A DNA stretch of 64,000 nucleotides from Actinomycetes bacterium. Its GTDB lineage: Bacteria; Actinomycetota; CADDZG01; JAHWKV01. The first letter of the stretch is position 1. Each line of letters starts with the position of its first letter. The notes below the pieces were generated by a model. That model was not told the origin of the DNA. It made no database searches and saw nothing but the letters and a program-made list of their open reading frames with translations. Positions 1,587 through 32,715 of the stretch are shown here, piece after piece. The position numbers were made by a program, and so were the translations under genes. Where the stretch lies: the NCBI GenBank assembly GCA_029263075.1, contig JAJCYE010000019.1:10454-74453 (forward strand), given 5' to 3'.

Positions 1587-4309
1587 GAGCGCCGCCTGCG
1601 ACGCGTGCGGTGTGCTGAGGGCGCACCCCGGTTTGCCAGCGCGCCGAGAGCTATCAGCGCCAGCGCCAGCGCGAACCACTCAAGGCTGGCGACTCCGGTC
1701 CGGCTGAGCCTCGAAGGAGGCGGGCTGGCCCCTGCCGCGGGAGTGGGGGAGGGTGTTGGAGAGGCGGTTGCCGTCGGCTGCGGAGTAGGACTGGTCGTCG
1801 GGGTGGGTGAGGCCGAGGGGCTGGGTGTCGGGGTTGCCGAGGCCGAGGGGCTGGGTGTCGGGCTCGGGGTGGCGACCAAAGGCTCGGTTAGAAGCACAAG
1901 CACGGAGTCATCGTCGGTGGCCGTGTTGCCTTCGTTGTCCACCGCCGAGGCGATGGTGCGGCTCGTCTGGCGATCACCGTTTACGCCGGTCAACGATGCC
2001 GTGTAGCTGCATGTGTAGGTCGCTCCGACCTGAATCGTTCCGCCGGTGCTACAGGATCCCCGGCCGTTCAGATCACCGTGAATGTCGTCCCCCAATGACG
2101 TGAGAACCACGTTCTCGACGCTCTGGTTGGCGATCTCCACCTGGAACGTGAAGGTCCCCCCCGGGGCGGGCAAGCTGGAAGGAGAAGCCTGTTTGTCCAC
2201 AGCGATCACCGGGGCAGTGTCGGTGATGGTCAGGGTCGTCGCCGGGGCGCTGTCGCTCACCACAGCCTCCCCGGGTCCGGTTGCGGTTACGGTGGCGATG
2301 CTGGTCCGGCTGGCCCCTGAGTCACCTATGAACTGGACGGTGAACTGACAGGTCAGGTTCTGACCCGCCGGGACCACCCTCCCTATCAGCAGGTTGCAGG
2401 TGTTAGGCGCTGGGAGTGCGGCGACGTTCCCATACAGGCTGTCGACTATCGAGGTAATGGTGATGTCGACCGGATTGCTTGTATTGGTGACCATGACGCT
2501 GTAGACCACCGGTCCGCCTGGTTCCGGCTGCGACGCCGGGCTGGCGGTGGCGTCGATCTGAACCCTCGGGGTTTCGGGGGGGACCGGCGTGGTTAACGTA
2601 ACGGTGGCGTCGTCCTGTCCGGTTGCCGTGTTTCCGGCGACATCGGTGGCGATTGCAGTCACGGTGTCGGTTTCCGAAGTACCTGCCGCACCGGTAAACG
2701 TGCCCTCAAAAGAGCAGGACAGGGTTGCACCGGCACTGATGGTAGCGCCGATGAGGTCGTCGCAGGTGTTGACTCCGGCCCTGGTGGACAGGTTGCCGTA
2801 AACGCTGTCGGCGAGGGAGGTGATCACCAACGGCACCGTGGAGGTGTTGGTCACGCCCACCGAAAACGTGAAGACGCCGGAGGGGGCCGGCAAAGAGGTG
2901 GGGGCTGCCGTCTTAGCAACCGTGATGGTTGGGAGGGGGACTACGGTAACCATCTCTGACGCATCGTTGCAGGCTCCGCTCGCCGGGTTGTTGTTGGCGT
3001 CACCGCTGTAGGCAGCGACGAACCGGTACTCGCCGGGCGTCGTAGGGACGAACGCCGGAGTTGCGCCGTAGGAGCCGTTGCCCGCCACGGCAACCGTGGC
3101 GGTGTAGACGGGTGCCCCGGCGCAGGTTGGGTCGCCGGGTCCGTAAGCGTCAAACCTGATGGTGCCGCCCGGGTTGCTGCCCCCGGCGATGGTTGCCGTA
3201 TCGACGACCTGCTGGCCAACCGAGGCCGTCGCCGGGGCGACCTGCGTGGAGATGGTGGGGGTAACCGGTCCGACCGTGGTGACGAGCACCGACTCGCCCG
3301 CATCGTTGCATGCCCCCGAAACCGGGTTATTGCCGTCGTCGCCCCCGTATCGGGCGATCCAACGGTAGGTGCCCGCCGCCGCCGGGGTGAACGCGTCTGA
3401 GGTGTAGGAACCATTTCCGGTCACCGGCTTGCTGTTGGTGAAGACCGCGGGCGAAGCGCAGGTGGCGTCGTCCGGGCCGAACAACTCAAAGTTGATGTTG
3501 CCCGTCGGGCTGTTTCCCCCCGCCAGCGTGGCAGTGTCGCTGACCTGTCCACCCAGGACAACCGGGGCAGAGGCGGTGGTGGAGATGGTGGGGGTAACCG
3601 GTCCGAGCGTTCCGGGGACCGTGGTGATGTCCTCGTTGGAGGTCGTCAGGGGCGTGCCGTTGAGGTGGGTCCCGGCGGCGAACGCCAGATTGTAGGTCGA
3701 GATGCCCGCCTCGCCCGGCAGCACATCCACCGCGGGCGCCTTCAAGACATCGAAGGTGAACAGGATTCGGCATCGATCCAGGTCGGATGCAATGTCGACG
3801 GCGGTAAGGACCACCGGCAGTCCGTCCGCGGGGGTAAAGCTGACCTGGCCGGTAGTGGGATTGATGATGTTGATGTCGAAAGTCCTGCCGGCGCACGCCG
3901 ACCCGGCTTCCCCGGTTCCGGTTGCGCTTAGGGCGAAGGTCCCCGGGTCCGCCGACGCAGGTACATCGTCGCAGTTCACATCGAAAGACGAACAAGACGG
4001 AACCAGGGTCATCGTAGTTATGTTGATGCTTCCCGTTCCGTCCGGTGGGCTTGAGCTGTTGATAACGGTGAAGTTTGCCGGGACCGAAGTGTCGCCGACG
4101 TTGACCTGCGTCGGGAAGGCGACGATCACCCCAAGGACGGCCGTAGCCTGGGCAGAAGTGATGGGGACCAGGCTCGCCACCAGCATGAGGGCGACGAGGA
4201 TGCCGTTCCGGCGTCGACGCTGGACCGATGTCGGATCCTCCAGAACCCGCCCGGTTCTCCAGAACACAGACGCGCTCCGGCGTGGTGAGAGATTTCTCTC
4301 GCCCTTCAT
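1583..4309 (-). CDS. Large secreted surface protein with DUF11-type conserved repeat domains, a Pro/Thr/Ser-rich linker and a sortase-like C-terminal anchor
   Basis: 908 aa. The N-terminus has a signal peptide ([25 protein letters not shown]). A GGGAGG RBS sits 5 nt before the ATG. The body has many ~50-aa repeats with a DUF11-like pattern ([27 protein letters not shown]...). The C-terminus has a [30 protein letters not shown] linker, then LSRTG, a hydrophobic helix and an RTRRRRRS tail. Confidence 0.7.
1809..1868. repeat. Perfect-to-near-perfect 30-bp tandem duplication inside the PT-linker coding region of the surface protein
   Basis: The unit gaggccgaggggctgggtgtcggggttgcc is followed immediately by gaggccgaggggctgggtgtcgggctcggg. 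This could be a slipped-strand or expansion locus. Confidence 0.8.
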
Positions 4310-24350: not shown

Positions 24351-25394
24351 CTAAGAAGCGGCTTCTGCGATCAGTTCCGAAGCTTCCCTGGTCGACAGGT
24401 GGTCCGGCGCGATCTTCCCCGCTACCGCCTCAACCGCCCGCTCGAGCCGTTCGGCGCCGGCGTCTTCGCCCAGGTGTTGGAGCATCATGGCGGCGGAGAG
24501 GATGGCCCCGATGGGGTTGGCCAGGCCGGTTCCGGCGATGTCGGGGGCGGAGCCGTGAACCGGCTCGAACATCGACACCTTCCCCGGGTGCATGTTGGCG
24601 CTGCCCACAAAACCGATGCCCCCCACCAGTCCGGCGGCCAGGTCGCTGAGGATGTCGCCGAACAGGTTGTCGGTGACCACCACCTGGAACCGTTTCGGCT
24701 GGGTGACCATCAACAGGCAGGCGGCGTCGATGTGCTGGTAGGCGGTCTCGACGCCCGGGAATTCGGGGCCGATCTCCTTCATTGCCCTCAGGTACAAGCC
24801 GCCCGCCCTTTCCAGGACGTTGGTCTTGTGCACCAGGGTGAGCGACTGCTTGCGGGCGGCCGCCAGTTCAAACCCGTAACGAACGATCCGGCTGATCGAC
24901 GGCCAGGTGTTCAGGGAGACCTCGGTGCTTATCTCCAGTTCGGTCCCTGGGTTCTCCGACTCCCCGCGGCCGCAGTACAGGCCCTCGGTGTTCTCACGAA
25001 CGATGGTGACGTCGAGTTGGTCGGCATTGTTGAGCACGCTGGAAACTCCGCTCAACAGGCGCGAAGGGCGCAGGTTCACGTAGAGGTCCAGTTCCCGGCG
25101 GAGGCGCAGGAGAAGGCCCTTCTCCAGGATTCCGGGTGGCACCCGGGGGTCGCCGACTGCCCCCAGGAGGACTGCCTCGTGTTCGTGCAAACGCGCGAGA
25201 TCGTCGTCGGTCAAGATCTCGCCGGTGTTCAGGTACCTGTTTGCGCCCAACTCATAGTTGGTGACCTCAAGCGCAAAACCTTCCGCATCGGCCACCGCAT
25301 CGAGGGCCATGAGCGCCCCTTCGATGACTTCCGGACCGATGCCGTCCCCCGGCACCACGGCCAGGTTGTGGCTACGAACGACCTCGGCCATCAA
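24351..25394 (-). CDS. leuB: 3-isopropylmalate dehydrogenase
   Basis: 347 aa with LeuB motifs (NLFGDILSD). Its start overlaps the leuA stop (ATGA). Confidence 0.9.
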   Translation of the reverse strand: MMAEVVRSHNLAVVPGDGIGPEVIEGALMALDAVADAEGFALEVTNYELGANRYLNTGEILTDDDLARLHEHEAVLLGAVGDPRVPPGILEKGLLLRLRRELDLYVNLRPSRLLSGVSSVLNNADQLDVTIVRENTEGLYCGRGESENPGTELEISTEVSLNTWPSISRIVRYGFELAAARKQSLTLVHKTNVLERAGGLYLRAMKEIGPEFPGVETAYQHIDAACLLMVTQPKRFQVVVTDNLFGDILSDLAAGLVGGIGFVGSANMHPGKVSMFEPVHGSAPDIAGTGLANPIGAILSAAMMLQHLGEDAGAERLERAVEAVAGKIAPDHLSTREASELIAEAAS

Positions 25395-26932
25395 AACGAC
25401 GGTGCGTCGTGCGCGGCACGACGGGTGTTGACGTTGGTAGCTCGATTGACTGCGTTCAAGAACGCTCGTGCCGAGCCCTCCACCACGTCGGTGGAGACAC
25501 CCCTGCCGGAGTAGATGACGCCGTCTACGTTGACCTGGACCGAGACCTCGCCGACCGCGTCGGTTCCTCCGGTCACCGCGCCGACCTTGAAGCTCAGCAA
25601 CTTGGCGTTGATCCCCAGGGCCCTCTTGATGGCACCGCAGGTCGCGTCGATCATCCCGTCGCCCTCGGCCGATTCCTCGAATGTCTCGTCGCCCGAACGG
25701 ATGCGAACCTTGGCGGTCGGATGGACGTGGGTCCCGCCCCGGACCTGCAGGTCCTCTAAAACGTAGTTGTCCTGGGAGGTGCTGATCTCGTCGGTGACCA
25801 CGGCCAACAGGTCGGCCTCCGTCATCTCCTTCTTGCGGTCCACCAACTCCCGGAAGCGGCCCCAGGCCCGGTTCAGGTCTTCGCCGTTCAGGTCGTAGCC
25901 CATGTCGGACAGGGTTTTGGCGAAGGCGTGGCGGCCTGAATGTTTGCCCAGCACGATCCGGTTGGAGTCCCAGCCGACCGAGGTCGCGTCCATGATCTCG
26001 TAGGTGGTCCGGTCCATCAGCACGCCGTGCTGGTGGATCCCCGCCTCGTGGGCGAAGGCGTTGGCTCCCACGATGGCTTTGTTCGGCGGCACCTGGTAGC
26101 CGGTCAGCGCTGAAACCAGCCGTGAGGTACGGACAATCTGCTTGGAGTCGGCACCCGTGGTGACGCCCATGCTGGCACCCCGGGTCTGGATGGCCATGAT
26201 GACCTCCTCGACCGAACAGTTGCCCGCCCGCTCACCGATGGCGTTGATGGCGCCCTCTACCTGCCGGGCGCCGGCACTCACGCCGGCCAGGGCGTTGGCA
26301 ACCGCCAGGCCCAGGTCCTGGTGGGTGTGGGTGGACCAAACCACGTCCTGGGCGCCCTCAACGTTGTCGATCAGGTAGCGGAACAGGTCGGCGTATTCGT
26401 TGGGCAGCGCATAGCCGACGGTGTCGGGCACGTTGCAAGTGGTGGCGCCGGCCTTGATGGCGGCGTTGAACATCTTCACCAGGAACTCGGGGTCGCTGCG
26501 GGTGGCGTCCTCAGCGCTGAACTCCACGTCCGGGCAGTAGTTGCGGGCTCGTTCCACCCCAGCGATGGCAATGCTCATTACCTGCTCGGGAGTTTTGTGC
26601 AGCTTCTTCTCCATATGGATGGAGGAAGTTGCGATGAAAACGTGGATCCGGGATCTCTGGGCGTCCTTGATGGATTCCCAGGCCCGGTCGATGTCGTCGA
26701 ACTGCATACGCGCCAGCCCGCAGATCACCGGCCCCTTTACGTTTTGGGCCACCGCCCTCACCGCCTCGAACTCGGACTGCGAGTTAATGGGGAAGCCCGC
26801 CTCGATGATGTCTACTCCCAGCGCGGCCAATTGGTGGGCTATCTCCACCTTTTCTTTGCCGCTCAGGTTGATGCCCGGGGACTGCTCCCCGTCGCGCAGC
26901 GTGGTGTCGAAGATGTGTACCTGGTCGGTCAT
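25391..26932 (-). CDS. leuA: 2-isopropylmalate synthase (short form, with C-terminal LeuA-dimer regulatory domain)
   Basis: VHIFDTTLRDGEQSPGINLSGKEKVEIAHQLAALGVDIIEAGFP is very close to the Firmicutes-type short LeuA rather than CimA. RBS AAGGAG lies 7 nt upstream. Confidence 0.85.
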   Translation of the reverse strand: MTDQVHIFDTTLRDGEQSPGINLSGKEKVEIAHQLAALGVDIIEAGFPINSQSEFEAVRAVAQNVKGPVICGLARMQFDDIDRAWESIKDAQRSRIHVFIATSSIHMEKKLHKTPEQVMSIAIAGVERARNYCPDVEFSAEDATRSDPEFLVKMFNAAIKAGATTCNVPDTVGYALPNEYADLFRYLIDNVEGAQDVVWSTHTHQDLGLAVANALAGVSAGARQVEGAINAIGERAGNCSVEEVIMAIQTRGASMGVTTGADSKQIVRTSRLVSALTGYQVPPNKAIVGANAFAHEAGIHQHGVLMDRTTYEIMDATSVGWDSNRIVLGKHSGRHAFAKTLSDMGYDLNGEDLNRAWGRFRELVDRKKEMTEADLLAVVTDEISTSQDNYVLEDLQVRGGTHVHPTAKVRIRSGDETFEESAEGDGMIDATCGAIKRALGINAKLLSFKVGAVTGGTDAVGEVSVQVNVDGVIYSGRGVSTDVVEGSARAFLNAVNRATNVNTRRAAHDAPSF

Positions 26933-27024
26933 ACCAGACTCCTTAAGTGGTCAACTCGTGGGTCGCTTTTTGATGGATGGGCTCTGGGTCGCACCTTTAC
27001 AGCAGCGACCCGAGCCCTCAAAGC

Positions 27025-27060
27025 GCGAGTAAGAGAACAGTCGGGGGGGTGCCCCCCGAC
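27025..27060 (-). terminator. Hairpin GTCGGGGGG-gt-CCCCCCGAC followed by UGUUCUCUU on the minus strand; probable terminator of the ilvBNC unit
   Basis: Lies 40 nt downstream of the ilvC stop and upstream of the leuA start. Confidence 0.4.
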
Positions 27061-27101
27061 GACCCCCCAAAAACCTCGTTGGAGTTAGCAGGCATTGATG
27101 T

Positions 27102-28097
27102 TCAGTCCTTTCGCAGCCAGGGCATCATGGACCTGAGTTCTTTGCCGACCGCCTCGATCTTGTGGGCTGCCGCGTCGTCTCGCATCTTCTGGAAGTTGGG
27201 GGAGCCGGCCTCGGCTTCCGCCACCCACTCGTCGGCAAAGTTGCCGCTTTGGATGTCGACCAGGATCTTGTCCATGGCTTCGCGGGTCTCGTCGGTTACC
27301 ACCCGCTGGCCGCGGGTCAGGTCGCCGTACTCGGCGGTGTCGGAGATGGAGTTGCGCATCTTCGCCAGACCGCCTTCGTAGATCAGGTCGACGATCAGCT
27401 TCACTTCGTGAAGACACTCGAAGTAGGCGACTTCCGGCTGGTAGCCGGCGTCCACCAGGGTCTCGAAGCCGGTCTGGATCAGCCGGGTCAGGCCGCCGCA
27501 CAGCACGGCCTGCTCGCCAAACAAGTCGGTTTCGGTCTCCTCGGTGAACGTGGTAGCGATCAGCCCGGCGCGAGCCGAACCGATGCCGTAGGCGTAAGCC
27601 AGGGCGTAAGCCAGGGCCTTGCCGGTGGCGTCCTGCTCCACGGCCACCAGCGCCGGGGTGCCGATGCCTTCGGTGAAGGTGCGGCGGACCAGGTGCCCGG
27701 GTCCTTTGGGGGCGACCATGAAGACGTCGACTCCCGCCGGGGGAGTGATCCTCTTAAAACGGATGTTGAATCCGTGGGCGAAGACCAGGGCGTCGCCGTC
27801 GTTGAGGTTGGGTGCTATCGACTCGTCGTAAATCGCCTTGCAGGTCTGGTCGGGGACCAGCAGCATGATGACTTCGGCGTCGGCCGCAGCTTTGGAGGTT
27901 TCCATCACCTTCAGGCCCGTGGCTTCGGCCGCAGCCCAAGAGGACGAACCTTCCCTGAGGCCGACGCGGACGTCGAAGCCCTGGTCCTTGAGGTTCAGGG
28001 CGTGAGCATGGCCCTGGGAACCGAAACCGATGATCGCGATGGGTCGCCCCTTCAGGACTTCGGGATCGGCGTCCTTTTCGTAGTACTTCGTGGCCAT
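27102..28097 (-). CDS. ilvC: Ketol-acid reductoisomerase
   Basis: 331 aa; [24 protein letters not shown] motif. Confidence 0.92.
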
Positions 28098-28124
28098 GCC
28101 TGGTGCCTCCTAGATTGTTGTGTG

Positions 28125-28637
28125 TTAACCCGCCACCCGCAGTTGACGGTCTTTGATTGATTTGGAACCCCGGCCCAGTGCCACGCGGCCGGATTTGACC
28201 AGTTCGATTATCCCGTAGACGGCGACGAGATCTTCGAACGCCTGGATCTTCTCGGGGGAACCGGTGATCTCGATGGTCATGGAGTCGGTGCCGACGTCGA
28301 TGACCTTGCCCCGGAACACGTCGGCCAGCTCGATGATGCGGGCCCTGACCTCCGCAACGGCCCGGATCTTGATGAGCATGAGTTCACGCTCCACCGACGA
28401 TCCGGCCTCCAATTCGATGACCTTGAGCACGTTGATCAACTTGTACACCTGTTTGGTCACGTGCTCCAGCGGCCGCTCGGGCAGGTCGACCACAATCGTC
28501 ATGCGGCTGACGTTAGGGCTCTCGGTGGTGCCGACCGCCAGGGAGTGGATGTTGAAGCCCCGGCGGGCGAACAGCCCCGAAACCCGGGCCAACACGCCCG
28601 GCTTGTTCTCGACAAGGACTGCGATGGTGTGTTTCAC
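28125..28637 (-). CDS. ilvN: Acetolactate synthase small (regulatory) subunit
   Basis: 170 aa with an ACT domain (MKHTIAVLVENKPGVLARVSGLFARRGFNIHSLAVG). Confidence 0.9.
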   Translation of the reverse strand: MKHTIAVLVENKPGVLARVSGLFARRGFNIHSLAVGTTESPNVSRMTIVVDLPERPLEHVTKQVYKLINVLKVIELEAGSSVERELMLIKIRAVAEVRARIIELADVFRGKVIDVGTDSMTIEITGSPEKIQAFEDLVAVYGIIELVKSGRVALGRGSKSIKDRQLRVAG

Positions 28638-28674
28638 GAGATGGCGCTCCCCTCAGTGATGTAGTGGCTCTCGA

Positions 28675-30459
28675 TCAATTTCCATGCTCCTCGTCGTCGC
28701 CGTACAGGTGGTCGCCCTGCTCGTGTTCAACGGGCTCGTCCCGCTCGAACTCCGGGCCCAGGATGATGTCGTCGTTGGAACTGCCGGCGGCGACCATCGG
28801 GTAACACATCTCACCCTTGTCGCAGCGGAAGTCGATGACCACCGGGCGGTCGTTGACCCCCCTGGCCTTCTCTATGGCGGCGTCGACCTCGTCCATCGAC
28901 TCGACCCTCAATCCGATGCAGCCGTACGCCTCGGCGAGCTTCACGTAGTCGGGGATGTCCCAGCCGAACTCCACCTCGGAGTAACGCTCGCTGTAGAACA
29001 GCTCCTGCCACTGGCGCACCATGCCCAAAAAGGCGTTGTTCAGGATGGCGATCTTGATCGGGATTTTCTCTACCGCCATTGTTGCGAGCTCCTGGCAGGT
29101 CATCTGGAAACAGCCGTCGCCGTCGATGCACCACACTTCGTCGTCCGGCATGGCCACCTTGGCGCCCATCGCCGCCGGTACACCGAAGCCCATAGCGCCG
29201 GAGCCGCCGGAGTTGATCCAGGTGCGGGGGCGCCGGAACGGGATGAATTGCGAACCCCACATCTGGTGCTGGCCCACGCCGGAGCAGTAGATCGCGTTGC
29301 CTTCGGTCAGTGCGGCGATCCGCTCTACCACGTACTGCGGCTTCAGGGGTCCGTCCTGGGTCTGGGTGTACCGGTAGGGGTACGCATTCCTCCAGCCGGT
29401 GACGGTTTCGAGCCACGCCGAGTAATCGGGGACGGGATCTTTGCCCCGGCGGGATTCGATGACCTTGATCAGCTCGGTCAGGACCGCTTTGGCGTCGCCG
29501 ACGATAGGCACGTCCGCCTTGCGGTTCTTGCTGATTTCCGCCGGGTCGATGTCGGCATGAATGATCTTGGCATCCGGGGCGAATGAGGCCAGCTTGCCGG
29601 TAACCCGGTCATCGAAGCGCGGTCCGATGCCGATCAGCAGGTCGCTGCGTTGCAGGGCGGTGACGGCGGTGTAGTTGCCGTGCATACCGGGCATGCCCAA
29701 GCACAGTTCGTGGGAGTCGGGGATGACGCCACGGGCCATGAGGGTGGTGACCACCGGGATCCCGGTCATCTCCGCCAGTTTTACCAGCTCCTCAGAGGCT
29801 CCCGCTTTGATGATTCCTCCGCCGGCGTACAGCACCGGCCGGGTTGCCGACGCCATCAACTTGGCCGCCTCGACAATCTGGCGCTGGTTGGGTTTGGTGG
29901 TGGGCTGGTACCCGGGCAGGTCGACGGGACCGGCCGGCTTGTACTCGAATTTCGCCTGCAGGACGTCTTTGGGGATGTCCACCAGGACCGGACCGGGCCG
30001 GCCGGTGCCGGCGATGTGGAACGCCTCGGCGATGGTTTGCGCGATGTCGTCCGGCTCCATGACCAAAAAAGTGTGTTTGGTGACCGGGCCGGCGATGCCG
30101 GTGATGTCGGATTCCTGGAAGGCGTCGTAGCCCATCGCCGGCCGCGGGACCTGCCCGGTGATGGCGACCACAGGGATCGAGTCCATAAAGGAGGACGCCA
30201 GGCCGGTGATCAGGTTGGTTGCACCCGGTCCCGAGGTGGCCATGCAGACGCCGACCTTGCCGGATGCCTGCGCGTAGCCGTCGGCGGCGTGTGCCGCACC
30301 CTGCTCGTGCCGGCAGAGGATGTGTTTGACCGTTGAATCGATCAACGGGTCGTAGGCGGGCAGGATTGCTCCGCCCGGTATACCAAAAATGTGCTCGACG
30401 CCAACTGCTTCGAGCGCAAGGAATAGGGCCTTTGCCCCGGTGACCTCGCTCATAGTCAT
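28675..30459 (-). CDS. ilvB: Acetolactate synthase large subunit
   Basis: 594 aa ThDP enzyme ([14 protein letters not shown] ... [14 protein letters not shown]). Confidence 0.92.
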
Positions 30460-30587
30460 GTTCCTTTCCTGAACGGCTCTAGGCAGTTCTTGCTCTTAAT
30501 GCAGTGGTTTGCAGGCGTGTTGGGAAGACTCGAAGGACTGAGCTCTACTCGCTCGGCTCGAAGTAGGGGGAGTCTGCAGTATCCGGG

Positions 30588-30619
30588 AAACAAAAAACCT
30601 CTCAGCTGCTGAGAGGTTT
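30588..30619 (-). terminator. Attenuator terminator in the ilvB leader: stem CCUCUCAG/CUGAGAGG (extendable with A-U pairs) followed by UUUUUUGUUU on the minus strand
   Basis: Located 130 nt upstream of the ilvB ATG and about 30 nt downstream of the leader-peptide stop. Confidence 0.6.
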
Positions 30620-30649
30620 CGTAGCGCTCGCCGGTGCTGCAGGCGCGCG

Positions 30650-30724
30650 CTACCGCGATACGAGAAGAAGAACCAGTTGCCCCTGAGGGCTCCTTTCTTT
30701 CCGGTCCGTTTCGCCGCGCGTCAC
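30650..30724 (-). CDS. Candidate ilvB leader peptide (24 aa) rich in branched-chain codons: MTRGETDRKERSPQGQLVLLLVSR
   Basis: GTG start 7 nt downstream of GGAG. The run Leu-Val-Leu-Leu-Leu-Val lies just before the stop, which is followed by the terminator hairpin. A TTGACA -35-like hexamer sits about 55 nt upstream on the same strand (around 30778-30783). Confidence 0.45.
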   Translation of the reverse strand: MTRGETDRKERSPQGQLVLLLVSR

Positions 30725-30878
30725 TGTCAGACTCCTGTTCGTTGCCGTAGGTCAATAGTGACCCAGCGCTCCTGGGGTGTCAAGCACGGGTTGGCGGCAG
30801 TTAGACTCGGCGCCGGAGATCAGGGCTCAGCGTTATGCGGGTTTGAAGTTGGGGAAGCTGCCCGGGGGCCCGTAACGA

Positions 30879-31091
30879 GTGGGAGTGCACTTGGAATCGA
30901 TTGAAATCCCGTGGGCCGCAGTCGCCCCGCTACTTGTTCTGGTTCTTGCCTTTGTGGGGTACTGCCTGTTCGACCTCTCACGCAGTGAGGTGAAGCACCT
31001 CCCGCGGTGGGCTTGGGGGCTTATCTGTGTCCTCTCCATCCCATTGGGCGGGATCATCTATCTACTGGTGGGCCGCGAGCCGAGGAGCTGA
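30879..31091 (+). CDS. PLDc_N (PLD-nuclease N-terminal) family small membrane protein
   Basis: 70 aa with two TM helices: ...HLPRWAWGLICVLSIPLGGIIYLLVGREPRS. Its stop overlaps the start of the next gene (TGATG). Confidence 0.6.
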   Translation: MGVHLESIEIPWAAVAPLLVLVLAFVGYCLFDLSRSEVKHLPRWAWGLICVLSIPLGGIIYLLVGREPRS

Positions 31092-31966
31092 TGGTCCGCA
31101 CCACCGGTTTGACGAAGCGCTACGGCGCCGCAGCCGCGGTGGACGGGGTCAACCTGATGGTCCCGGCAGGATCGGTCTACGGACTGGTCGGACCCAACGG
31201 TGCCGGTAAGACCTCGCTGCTTGCCCTGCTGGCCGGTTTGCGCCGTCCGACATCCGGTTCGATGATCATCGATGCCGGACCCGGGGAGATTGCGGTGCTG
31301 CCCGATACCCCGCGCTTCGACCCCTGGCTTACGGGCCGGGAGGTGGTGTCGCTGGCACAACAACTTTCAGGTGCCGCTCCCGACAGCGTCGACCGGGTGA
31401 TTTCGGAGGCTGGGATCGCCGAAGCGGCGGGCCGGGCGGTGGGGGGTTACTCCCGGGGCATGCTGCAACGCCTTGGAGTGGCGTGCACGGTGGTGGGTGC
31501 GCCCAAGCTTCTGTTGCTCGATGAGCCGGCGTCGGCGCTGGATCCTTTGGGTCGCCGGGAGGTCCTCAATCTGGTCGCCAGGCTGCGCGGGGTGGCAACC
31601 GTGCTCTTTTCGAGCCACCTCCTTGCCGATGTTCAGGAGGTCTGCGACACGGTCGGCGTGATGAAGGGTGGCCGGATGATCTTTCAGGGTCCTATCGACC
31701 GGTTGTTGGTCGGTTCAGCGCTGCCCCGGTATGTGGTGCGCTGCCGGCCGCCCATTGAGCCGGTCATCGCCGGTCTGCGGCTTCAAGAGTGGATAGCGGG
31801 CGTTGAGCGAAGCGGGCCCGACGAATTGTCGATCACGGTCCGCAGCCTTGCCGACGCCGAACTCCGGCTCATGGCGGCACTTGCCGGCACCGGGGCCCGG
31901 GTGGTTTCGTTCGGCCCTGAGGAAGTTTCCCTTGAGCGGGCATTCCTGGAACTCACGCAGCCGTGA
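31091..31966 (+). CDS. ABC transporter ATP-binding protein
   Basis: GPNGAGKTS Walker A, LSGGMLQR-like signature (YSRGMLQRL), LLLDEP Walker B. The start is Met29 of track ORF 31007..31966. Confidence 0.85.
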   Translation: MVRTTGLTKRYGAAAAVDGVNLMVPAGSVYGLVGPNGAGKTSLLALLAGLRRPTSGSMIIDAGPGEIAVLPDTPRFDPWLTGREVVSLAQQLSGAAPDSVDRVISEAGIAEAAGRAVGGYSRGMLQRLGVACTVVGAPKLLLLDEPASALDPLGRREVLNLVARLRGVATVLFSSHLLADVQEVCDTVGVMKGGRMIFQGPIDRLLVGSALPRYVVRCRPPIEPVIAGLRLQEWIAGVERSGPDELSITVRSLADAELRLMAALAGTGARVVSFGPEEVSLERAFLELTQP

Positions 31967-32715
31967 GTTTGTGGCGGCTCGAGTGGCTGCGGCTGCTGAG
32001 GACCAAACGGTGGGTGGCCCTGCTGGGTGTCTACATCTTTTTCGGGTTTCTCGGGCCTCTGACCGCGCGCTACCTAAGCGAGATCGTCTCGTTCGCCGGG
32101 GCGGGGGGTGCCACCATCAATTTCCCGCCTCCGGTGCCGGCGGACGGCATGGCCCAGTACGTCTCCAACGCCCTGCAGTTGGGAACTCTGGTCTCGGTGG
32201 TCGTTGCGGCCGGAGCGGTTGGTTTTGATGCCGTCCCGGAAATGGGGGTCTTCTTGCGCACCCGGGTGCCGGGGACGTTGCGCATCCTTCTTCCCCGGAT
32301 GGTGGTGGTCTGCGGAGCCATTGTGTTTGCGTTCGTGGCGGGGTCGCTCGCGGCCTGGTACGAAACGTGGGCTCTGCTCGGCTCGCCGGGGGCCAGGGCG
32401 GTACTTGCCGGGATCGGATTCGGTTCAATTTTCCTGGTCTTCGTGGTGGCGCTGGTGGGCGCCGTATCGGCCCGCTTGAACTCGGTCTTGGGGACCGTCA
32501 TGGTGTCGATAGTCATCCTGCTTTTGATGCCGGTGGTGTCGGTTGCCGGTGCCGCCGGCCGCTGGCTGCCCAGTCACCTGGCCGGGGCATTGGGTGAACT
32601 CCCGGCGGGCGGCGCCCGCCCCTCAGACTACCTGGGTGCCGCGGTGGTGACCCTGGTTGCTACGGTGTGCCTGACCTGGCTGGCGGTCGTCATGGCCGCC
32701 CGCCGGGAGCTTTGA
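31963..32715 (+). CDS. ABC-2-type transporter permease
   Basis: 250 aa, six predicted TM helices, translationally coupled to the ATPase. Confidence 0.7.

Follow-up and report, generated by a model that had tools for sequence, protein, structure and literature searches.

In classical attenuators, ribosome stalling leads to capture of the terminator 5′ arm by leader regions 2:3, which overlap the terminator. Among actinobacterial ilvB genes, those of Corynebacterium, Mycobacterium and Streptomyces are preceded by candidate leader peptides and terminators (Seliverstov et al., 2005; PMC1262725). The mode of action of the Streptomyces ilvB leader, MRTRILVLGKRVG (Craster 1999, cited in Seliverstov et al., 2005; PMC1262725), was called unclear in that study, because substitutions of the candidate regulatory codons in S. 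coelicolor had reportedly been without effect (cited in PMC1262725). In Corynebacterium, the ilvB-II motif has been described as an attenuator that works through an upstream ORF (uORF; Narunsky et al., 2023; PMC10272879). For Mycobacterium tuberculosis ilvB1 (Nat Microbiol 2026; PMC13236596), a leader transcript of ~120 nt ends before ilvB1 and its uORF is translated. That leader responds to branched-chain amino acids (BCAAs), and changing its LVVI codons to AAAA results in low, uninducible expression (PMC13236596). The anti-terminator proposed for it is masked when a ribosome occupies the stop codon, and the alternative structures were described as “mutually exclusive” (PMC13236596).

Here we describe the region upstream of ilvB in a 64,000-nucleotide stretch of DNA from an uncultured actinobacterium (the window). 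We propose that this region is the 5′ leader of ilvB-ilvN-ilvC-leuA-leuB and that it is probably a translation-sensed transcription attenuator. In support of this reading, its parts are conserved, both of its hairpins covary, its sensor codons are mostly rare, and it is weakly related to the validated M. tuberculosis leader.

Parts of the leader and its surroundings

Read on the minus strand, the leader and the genes that follow it consist of these parts:

30778..30783 (−): −35 hexamer TTGACA, by direct reading
30755..30760 (−): −10 hexamer CACTAT, after a 17-nt spacer from the −35 hexamer, by direct reading
30732..30735 (−): Shine-Dalgarno sequence GGAG, 7 nt before the GTG, by direct reading
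30650..30724 (−): leader ORF of 24 codons plus TAG, product VTRGETDRKERSPQGQLVLLLVSR and then the stop; GTG at 30724-30722, TAG at 30652-30650
30659..30676 (−): sensor codons CTG GTT CTT CTT CTC GTA (LVLLLV), six consecutive Leu/Val codons
30621..30653 (−): hairpin B, 33 nt, GC-rich, GUAGCGC-G-CGCC...GGCG-A-GCGCUAC, from folding
30594..30620 (−): intrinsic terminator hairpin GAAACCUCUCAG-CAG-CUGAGAGGUUUU, 12 pairs, with its GC core at 30616-30609 / 30605-30598
30588..30597 (−): U-tract TTTTTTGTTT, its first four U shared with the A-U pairs at the terminator foot
30460..30587 (−): rest of the 5′ leader before the ilvB ATG (30459), ~128 nt, with no other element recognized
24351..30459 (−): regulated genes ilvB (30459-28675), ilvN (28637-28125), ilvC (28097-27102), leuA (26932-25391) and leuB (25394-24351)

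The two hexamers suggest a transcription start at ~30748, which would be ~25 nt before the leader ORF. A strict sigma-70 scan left the TTGACA-17-CACTAT site unflagged. The same −35/−10 spacing is found in the related loci L001–L004 and L010 (numbered within our comparison set of 160 IlvB-anchored loci, 80 of them from species-representative genomes and 80 from metagenomes), and a promoter-like arrangement (TTGACN, a spacer of 16–18 nt, NANNNT) stands upstream of 54 of 86 related leaders versus 1 of 86 random control windows. The Shine-Dalgarno region CAACGAACAGGAG is kept in L001–L003, and in L001 the frame of the leader ORF is intact although 9 nt have been deleted there. Five of the six sensor codons are non-preferred: in the window’s own ilvBNC-leuAB genes, CTT and CTC account for 3% and 18% of Leu codons, and GTT and GTA for 10% and 7% of Val codons.

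Hairpin B folds with a predicted energy of −19.0 kcal/mol (z = −2.4). Its foot lies 1 nt before the stop codon, placing the TAG inside its 5′ arm, and 8 nt past the first base of the last sensor codon, a geometry that suits sensing. The terminator that follows (−15.9 kcal/mol, z = −5.0) was equalled by none of 200 shuffled sequences and is directly succeeded by UUUUUUGUUU, which runs to 30588. By analogy with M. tuberculosis, hairpin B is presumed to be a ribosome-gated anti-terminator. Two further sequence features lie near these hairpins. Just past the U-tract (30583-30591, −), a YUNNCCCGG motif, GUUUCCCGG in the window, is kept in distant leaders. In both the window and L001, a self-complementary CUGCAG occurs in the loop of hairpin B (30637-30642, −) and again 14 nt past the U-tract (30571-30576, −); pairing between the two copies would be possible in read-through transcripts only.

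Much of this layout had been recognized in an earlier sequence-only reading of the window. It had pointed out the −35-like TTGACA, leaving the CACTAT 17 nt further on unmentioned, as well as the GGAG-GTG start and the 24-codon ORF with six Leu/Val codons at its end, all of which can be read on the minus strand, and its figure of about 130 nt between terminator and ilvB ATG agrees with the ~128 nt that we count. The stem it placed some 30 nt past the ORF is indeed the terminator, but those “30 nt” are no spacer: they are the 33-nt hairpin B, which that reading missed and which, among the RNA features, is second in conservation to the terminator alone.

The gene order ilvB-N-C followed by leuA-leuB, also given by the sequence-only reading, is confirmed by NCBIfam, each of the five proteins scoring at or above its equivalog cut-off. 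We infer from the shared strand and the spacing that the five genes probably form one operon. The 170-nt spacer between ilvC and leuA contains a 9-bp GC hairpin, GTCGGGGGGCACCCCCCCGAC, followed by a weak T-run (27040-27060, −), possibly a partial terminator or a site of processing within the presumed operon. At the start of ilvB there are two in-frame ATGs two codons apart (ATGACTATG; 30453-30459, −), and the true start may be the one at 30453, since L001 carries the second ATG only. The sequence-only reading had rejected a 99-aa ORF covering the same DNA; this ORF (30456-30755) matches no NCBIfam or Pfam family. Directly upstream of the leader region, and after an ABC-ATPase-like ORF, lies a 74-aa ORF (30833-31057, −), which is likewise without an NCBIfam or Pfam match. 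We also agree that no T-box is present: Rfam gave no match in 29500-32000 even at E ≤ 10, nor any across the whole window at gathering score, curated ilvB-associated Rfam motifs such as ilvB-OMG were without a match, and a tRNA scan found nothing.

Conservation and covariation among Actinomycetota

The comparison set was scanned mechanically for a fixed order of elements: a small ORF with BCAA codons at its end, its stop, then a hairpin, a terminator and a run of U. The window was scanned along with the 160 loci, and this module turned up in 99 of these 161 sequences, which reduce to 86 distinct leaders. The nearest relatives are uncultured Actinomycetota with IlvB identities of 91–75%; among them the upstream genes vary while the module before ilvB is constant. 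The stop codon is TAG in 78 of the 86 leaders, and in these the foot of hairpin B lies within −3 to +2 nt of the first base of the stop. Across all 86, hairpin B spans 24–46 nt and the linker joining it to the terminator measures 0–6 nt. In the peptides, the C-terminal BCAA run alone is conserved (LVLI, LVVV, ILVL, LLLV), with an in-frame GUA in essentially all related leaders and CUC-GUA-CUU-AUY as the commonest form; the foot of hairpin B is also conserved in sequence, as (G)GCGCG.

By a rough estimate, a spacer this long would contain six successive Leu/Val/Ile codons by chance with odds of ~0.02. What is decisive against chance is the comparative recurrence of ORF end, hairpin and terminator before ilvB. 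The sequence-only reading had staked its claim on conservation of the Leu/Val run and the hairpin in related genomes, and both are conserved across the 86 distinct leaders. Together with the covariation described below and the relatedness to the Streptomyces leader and, weakly, to that of M. tuberculosis, this supports its assignment of the region as a leader-peptide attenuator of ilvBNC.

Many of the main-clade loci carry a conserved ORF of ~105 aa (MRYEFER...WTPWEFERACR...) between the attenuator and ilvB (L009:2678-2998, with equivalents in L008, L011, L014 and others). It matches no Pfam family, and in the loci that have it the attenuator is located ~450 nt upstream of ilvB.

We built a covariance model, R1, from seven seeds of the window’s clade, with the two hairpins as its structure. 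Searching 100 sources returned 92 matches at E ≤ 0.01, and in the 64-kb window R1 has a single site, 30588-30676, at 88.8 bits. In the R1 alignment, 93.3% of the cells are paired, versus 73.3% with shuffled partners and 44–58% when the partners are slid, figures that lean towards the model because the alignment is fitted to it. In the same model-fitted alignment of 92 leaders, compensatory double changes are found at 19 of the 20 pairs: all 12 modelled pairs of hairpin B covary, as do 7 of the 8 in the terminator. A mutual-information measure (MI/APC) that is independent of these pair counts places its top 12 column pairs all within hairpin B or the terminator; no covarying pair by that measure joins the two helices to each other or to the coding stretch, and none is long-range. 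When 82 leaders were aligned with MAFFT alone, RNAalifold recovered 5 terminator pairs and nothing else. This shortfall arises because the variable loop of hairpin B is misaligned there, and the covariance-model alignment was therefore used instead.

One locus, L103, has a second R1 match (3876-3961, +; 31 bits), located between ilvN and an aminotransferase-like ORF. It too consists of two abutting hairpins and a U-tract, with a TAA just before the first hairpin; the ORF reaching this TAA ends in ...TLTRRSNK and is without a BCAA run. It may represent an ordinary operon terminator of the same design, or else another attenuator.

Proposed ribosome gating and the search for an antiterminator

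As we picture the attenuator, a ribosome translating the leader ORF would meet six Leu/Val codons, most of them rare (CUU CUU, GUA), in a transcript begun ~25 nt before the ORF. Given an ample supply of charged Leu and Val tRNAs, the ribosome would reach the UAG and unwind the 5′ arm of hairpin B, and the terminator would then halt RNA polymerase at ~30590. When the charged tRNAs are scarce, the ribosome would stall 8–23 nt short of hairpin B; the hairpin would stay folded against the terminator, and the polymerase would read on into ilvB. The sign of the regulation and the assignment of hairpin B as the anti-terminator are both carried over from the M. tuberculosis relative, and we infer them on that basis.

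To model the ribosome, we took its footprint to extend 12 nt downstream of the first base of the A-site codon. Equilibrium folding with such ribosome masks gave the terminator (all pairs or the bottom 3) a level of ~0.9–0.97 in every state; because the E. coli trpL and M. tuberculosis ilvB1 controls give the same level, we discarded this test as powerless. We relied instead on a kinetic proxy, which asks whether the terminator 5′ arm is engaged in pairing while its 3′ arm is still untranscribed. For trpL, the proxy (run on a control sequence verified in 5422 E. coli genomes) is 0.71 with the ribosome on the Trp codons versus 0.03 with the ribosome at the stop. Scored on the bottom 3 nt, the stalled and at-stop values are 0.70 and 0.21 for M. 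tuberculosis, 0.62 and 0.13 for Nocardia, 0.81 and 0.03 for Hoyosella, and 0.36 and 0.19 for Streptomyces. In these described types, hairpin B is predicted to overlap the terminator foot by 2–3 nt.

The window gives 0.06 stalled and 0.01 at the stop for the bottom 3 nt, and 0.09 and 0.40 for the whole arm; the corresponding means over the 86 leaders are 0.31 and 0.40 for the bottom 3 nt and 0.24 and 0.41 for the whole arm. This calibrated test thus finds no capture of the terminator 5′ arm under stalling, either in the window or in the TAG-stop subfamily, and in the window no anti-terminator shares nucleotides with the terminator foot. In these models hairpin B and the terminator abut without competing for nucleotides, and the results lend the textbook mechanism no support. 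The sequence-only reading had called the layout classic. That description holds for the tandem codons and the terminator, but not for antiterminator capture: the check it had proposed, folding the leader for alternative antiterminator and terminator pairings, yields none that captures the terminator 5′ arm.

Pairings elsewhere in the leader were also sought with RNAduplex against shuffled sequences. The mean z was ~0 for the upstream leader with the terminator 5′ arm, for the upstream leader with the sensor stretch, and for the hairpin B region with either arm of the terminator. Long-range folds of the whole leader that paired a terminator arm with sequence upstream of the promoter were discarded, because that sequence is not transcribed. 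Separately, the sensor stretch is nearly a copy of the terminator 5′ arm, a resemblance also seen in the consensus of the whole family (CCCUCG against CGAGGG).

For the TAG-stop subfamily there is one candidate for how hairpin B would block the terminator, which we put forward tentatively and consider possible rather than probable: a steric switch, in which anti-termination would proceed without strand competition. A stalled ribosome would stand at the foot of a rigid hairpin B, itself 0–6 nt from the terminator 5′ arm, and the lowest terminator pairs would be kept from forming in the RNA exit channel of the polymerase. Upon reaching the UAG, a ribosome would open up the 5′ arm of hairpin B, the flank would become a flexible single strand, and the terminator could be completed. 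The uniformly short linker is consistent with such a switch, though no proof of it. If it is true, a large set of actinobacterial attenuators would rely on steric gating by the ribosome and not on the 2:3 / 3:4 exchange, and the “paradoxical” Streptomyces results would perhaps be explained in the same way.

The pairing results bear on the idea that this is, after all, a classical trp-type attenuator, with an antiterminator that shares the terminator 5′ arm but was missed by folding, for example through non-canonical or long-range pairing or through a duplex between the sensor codons and the terminator 3′ arm. The last of these has something to recommend it, for the sensor CUUCUCG (30661-30667, −) pairs at 7 of 7 positions with the 3′ arm UGAGAGG (30598-30604, −), and the family averages 5.07 of 7 in one fixed register, with a mean duplex z of −1.3. 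The Mycobacteriales relatives, in which hairpin B and the terminator foot overlap by 2–3 nt, also speak for a trp-type arrangement. As a switch, however, the sensor/3′ arm pairing was rejected: it shows no covariation, its 5.07 compares with 5.01 for shuffled partners, and that score was reached by 59 of 1000 shuffles. It would moreover give regulation of the wrong sign, because the stretch lies inside the stalled ribosome. With the other pairings at z ~0, no long-range covarying pairs, and a kinetic test that is negative in the window and the 86 leaders but positive for trpL and M. tuberculosis, we regard a trp-type attenuator as unlikely.

Explanations in which translation plays no part fare worse still. 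A terminator controlled by a protein or ligand (riboswitch-like, or similar to PyrR or TRAP), next to which the small ORF would be incidental, could account for the conservation of the (G)GCGCG foot of hairpin B beyond what structure demands, and for the similar two-hairpin module that stands after ilvN in L103 without a BCAA run. It leaves unexplained why the BCAA run, the in-frame GUA and the placement of the stop at the foot of the hairpin are kept in 86 leaders whose peptides otherwise vary, and why indels preserve the frame. Nor does hairpin B resemble an aptamer, its loop varying in both length and sequence (span 24–46 nt); there is no Rfam match, and the Corynebacterium ilvB-II motif is without a ppGpp response (PMC10272879). 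We consider translation-independent control very improbable. The least credible alternative, to which we give hardly any weight, is a plain terminator of the upstream unit of ABC-transporter and 74-aa ORFs that happens to be accompanied by a chance small ORF. That explanation has in its favor that the genes upstream share the strand of the leader and end at 30833, but a conserved promoter stands between the upstream ORF and the leader, and relatives whose upstream genes differ have the same module before ilvB. A translation-sensed attenuator accordingly remains the reading that we favor.

Comparison with known ilvB leaders

For annotation, the leader in the window is an ordinary one: the 99-aa ORF should be dropped, and the spacer labeled an ilvB leader that contains a sensor ORF of 24 codons, from which it follows that leuA and leuB are predicted to be co-regulated by Leu/Val supply. 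For mechanism, it is a clean test case. The module is present in at least 86 distinct leaders of uncultured Actinomycetota, including Acidimicrobiia, has no Rfam family, and joins these leaders to those of Streptomyces and of M. tuberculosis ilvB1. Its TAG-stop form, with an anti-terminator hairpin that does not overlap the terminator, is apparently a widespread variant that has gone undescribed. The clean separation of hairpin and terminator makes it a direct test of how the actinobacterial ilvB “anti-terminator” stops termination, and the question of how termination is blocked bears on M. tuberculosis, where ilvB1 attenuation underlies a vulnerability of rifampicin-resistant strains (PMC13236596).

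Outside the Actinomycetota, the ilv-leu T-box leader of Bacillus controls a similar gene order (ilvB-N-C-leuA-leuB) and also acts through a terminator. The window differs from it in having no T-box or other Rfam family, and sensing would be by translation, not by binding of tRNA to the RNA. The enterobacterial trp, ilvBN, ilvGMEDA and leu leaders share with the window their tandem regulatory codons, a stop just before a hairpin, and a Rho-independent terminator. They are set apart by the capture of the terminator 5′ arm, which the proxy detects in trpL (0.71 versus 0.03) and not in the window. The leaders of C. glutamicum and other Corynebacterium resemble it, going by their description, in having a BCAA-rich uORF and a terminator before ilvB, with experimental support for a role in attenuation (PMC10272879). 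In the ilvB-II motif as described, however, the uORF lies inside stem P1, and in the proposed antiterminator the P1 loop pairs with the 3′ shoulder of the terminator (PMC10272879), whereas in the window the hairpin comes after the ORF and no such pairing was detected.

The Streptomyces leader is nearer. It shares the sensor nucleotides AUU CUC GUA CUU and the two abutting hairpins, and R1 matches the Streptomyces-type leader of locus L056 at 31.7 bits (E 4e-5); unlike that of the window, its ORF continues through the 5′ arm of the hairpin to a UGA stop. The same arrangement, namely a CUC-GUA sensor, two abutting hairpins, and an ORF that passes through the 5′ arm and ends in UGA, is seen in the leaders of Streptomyces, Nocardia, Lentzea and Hoyosella alike.

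The M. tuberculosis locus, which we fetched for comparison, has a leader that encodes MDKAGKPGMLVVIGRRVGA and a stop, followed by CGCGUUGGUGC...GCACCAACGCG and then, with a 0-nt linker, by ACCCUCG...CGAGGGU-U6. The best R1 match in this locus (4.2 kb) falls on the ilvB1 leader, although it is weak (14.5 bits, E ~0.01). As in the window, the leader stands before ilvB-ilvN-ilvC, and the BCAA run of its short ORF contains the rare codons CUC-GUA. Both have a GC-rich hairpin that would be unwound solely by a ribosome reaching the stop, and a terminator of the ACCCUCG/CGAGGGU type with its U-tract placed directly after that hairpin, with a 0-nt linker. They differ in that the M. tuberculosis ORF runs for 6 codons through the 5′ arm, with its UGA in the loop, whereas the UAG of the window is at the foot; in that the M. 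tuberculosis hairpin is predicted to reach 2–3 nt into the terminator foot (0.70 stalled and 0.21 at the stop, against 0.06 and 0.01 in the window); and in the operon, to which leuA and leuB are added in the window. On the strength of these sequence comparisons, the window leader is a member of a broad actinobacterial lineage of ilvB leaders, one that includes an experimentally validated attenuator.
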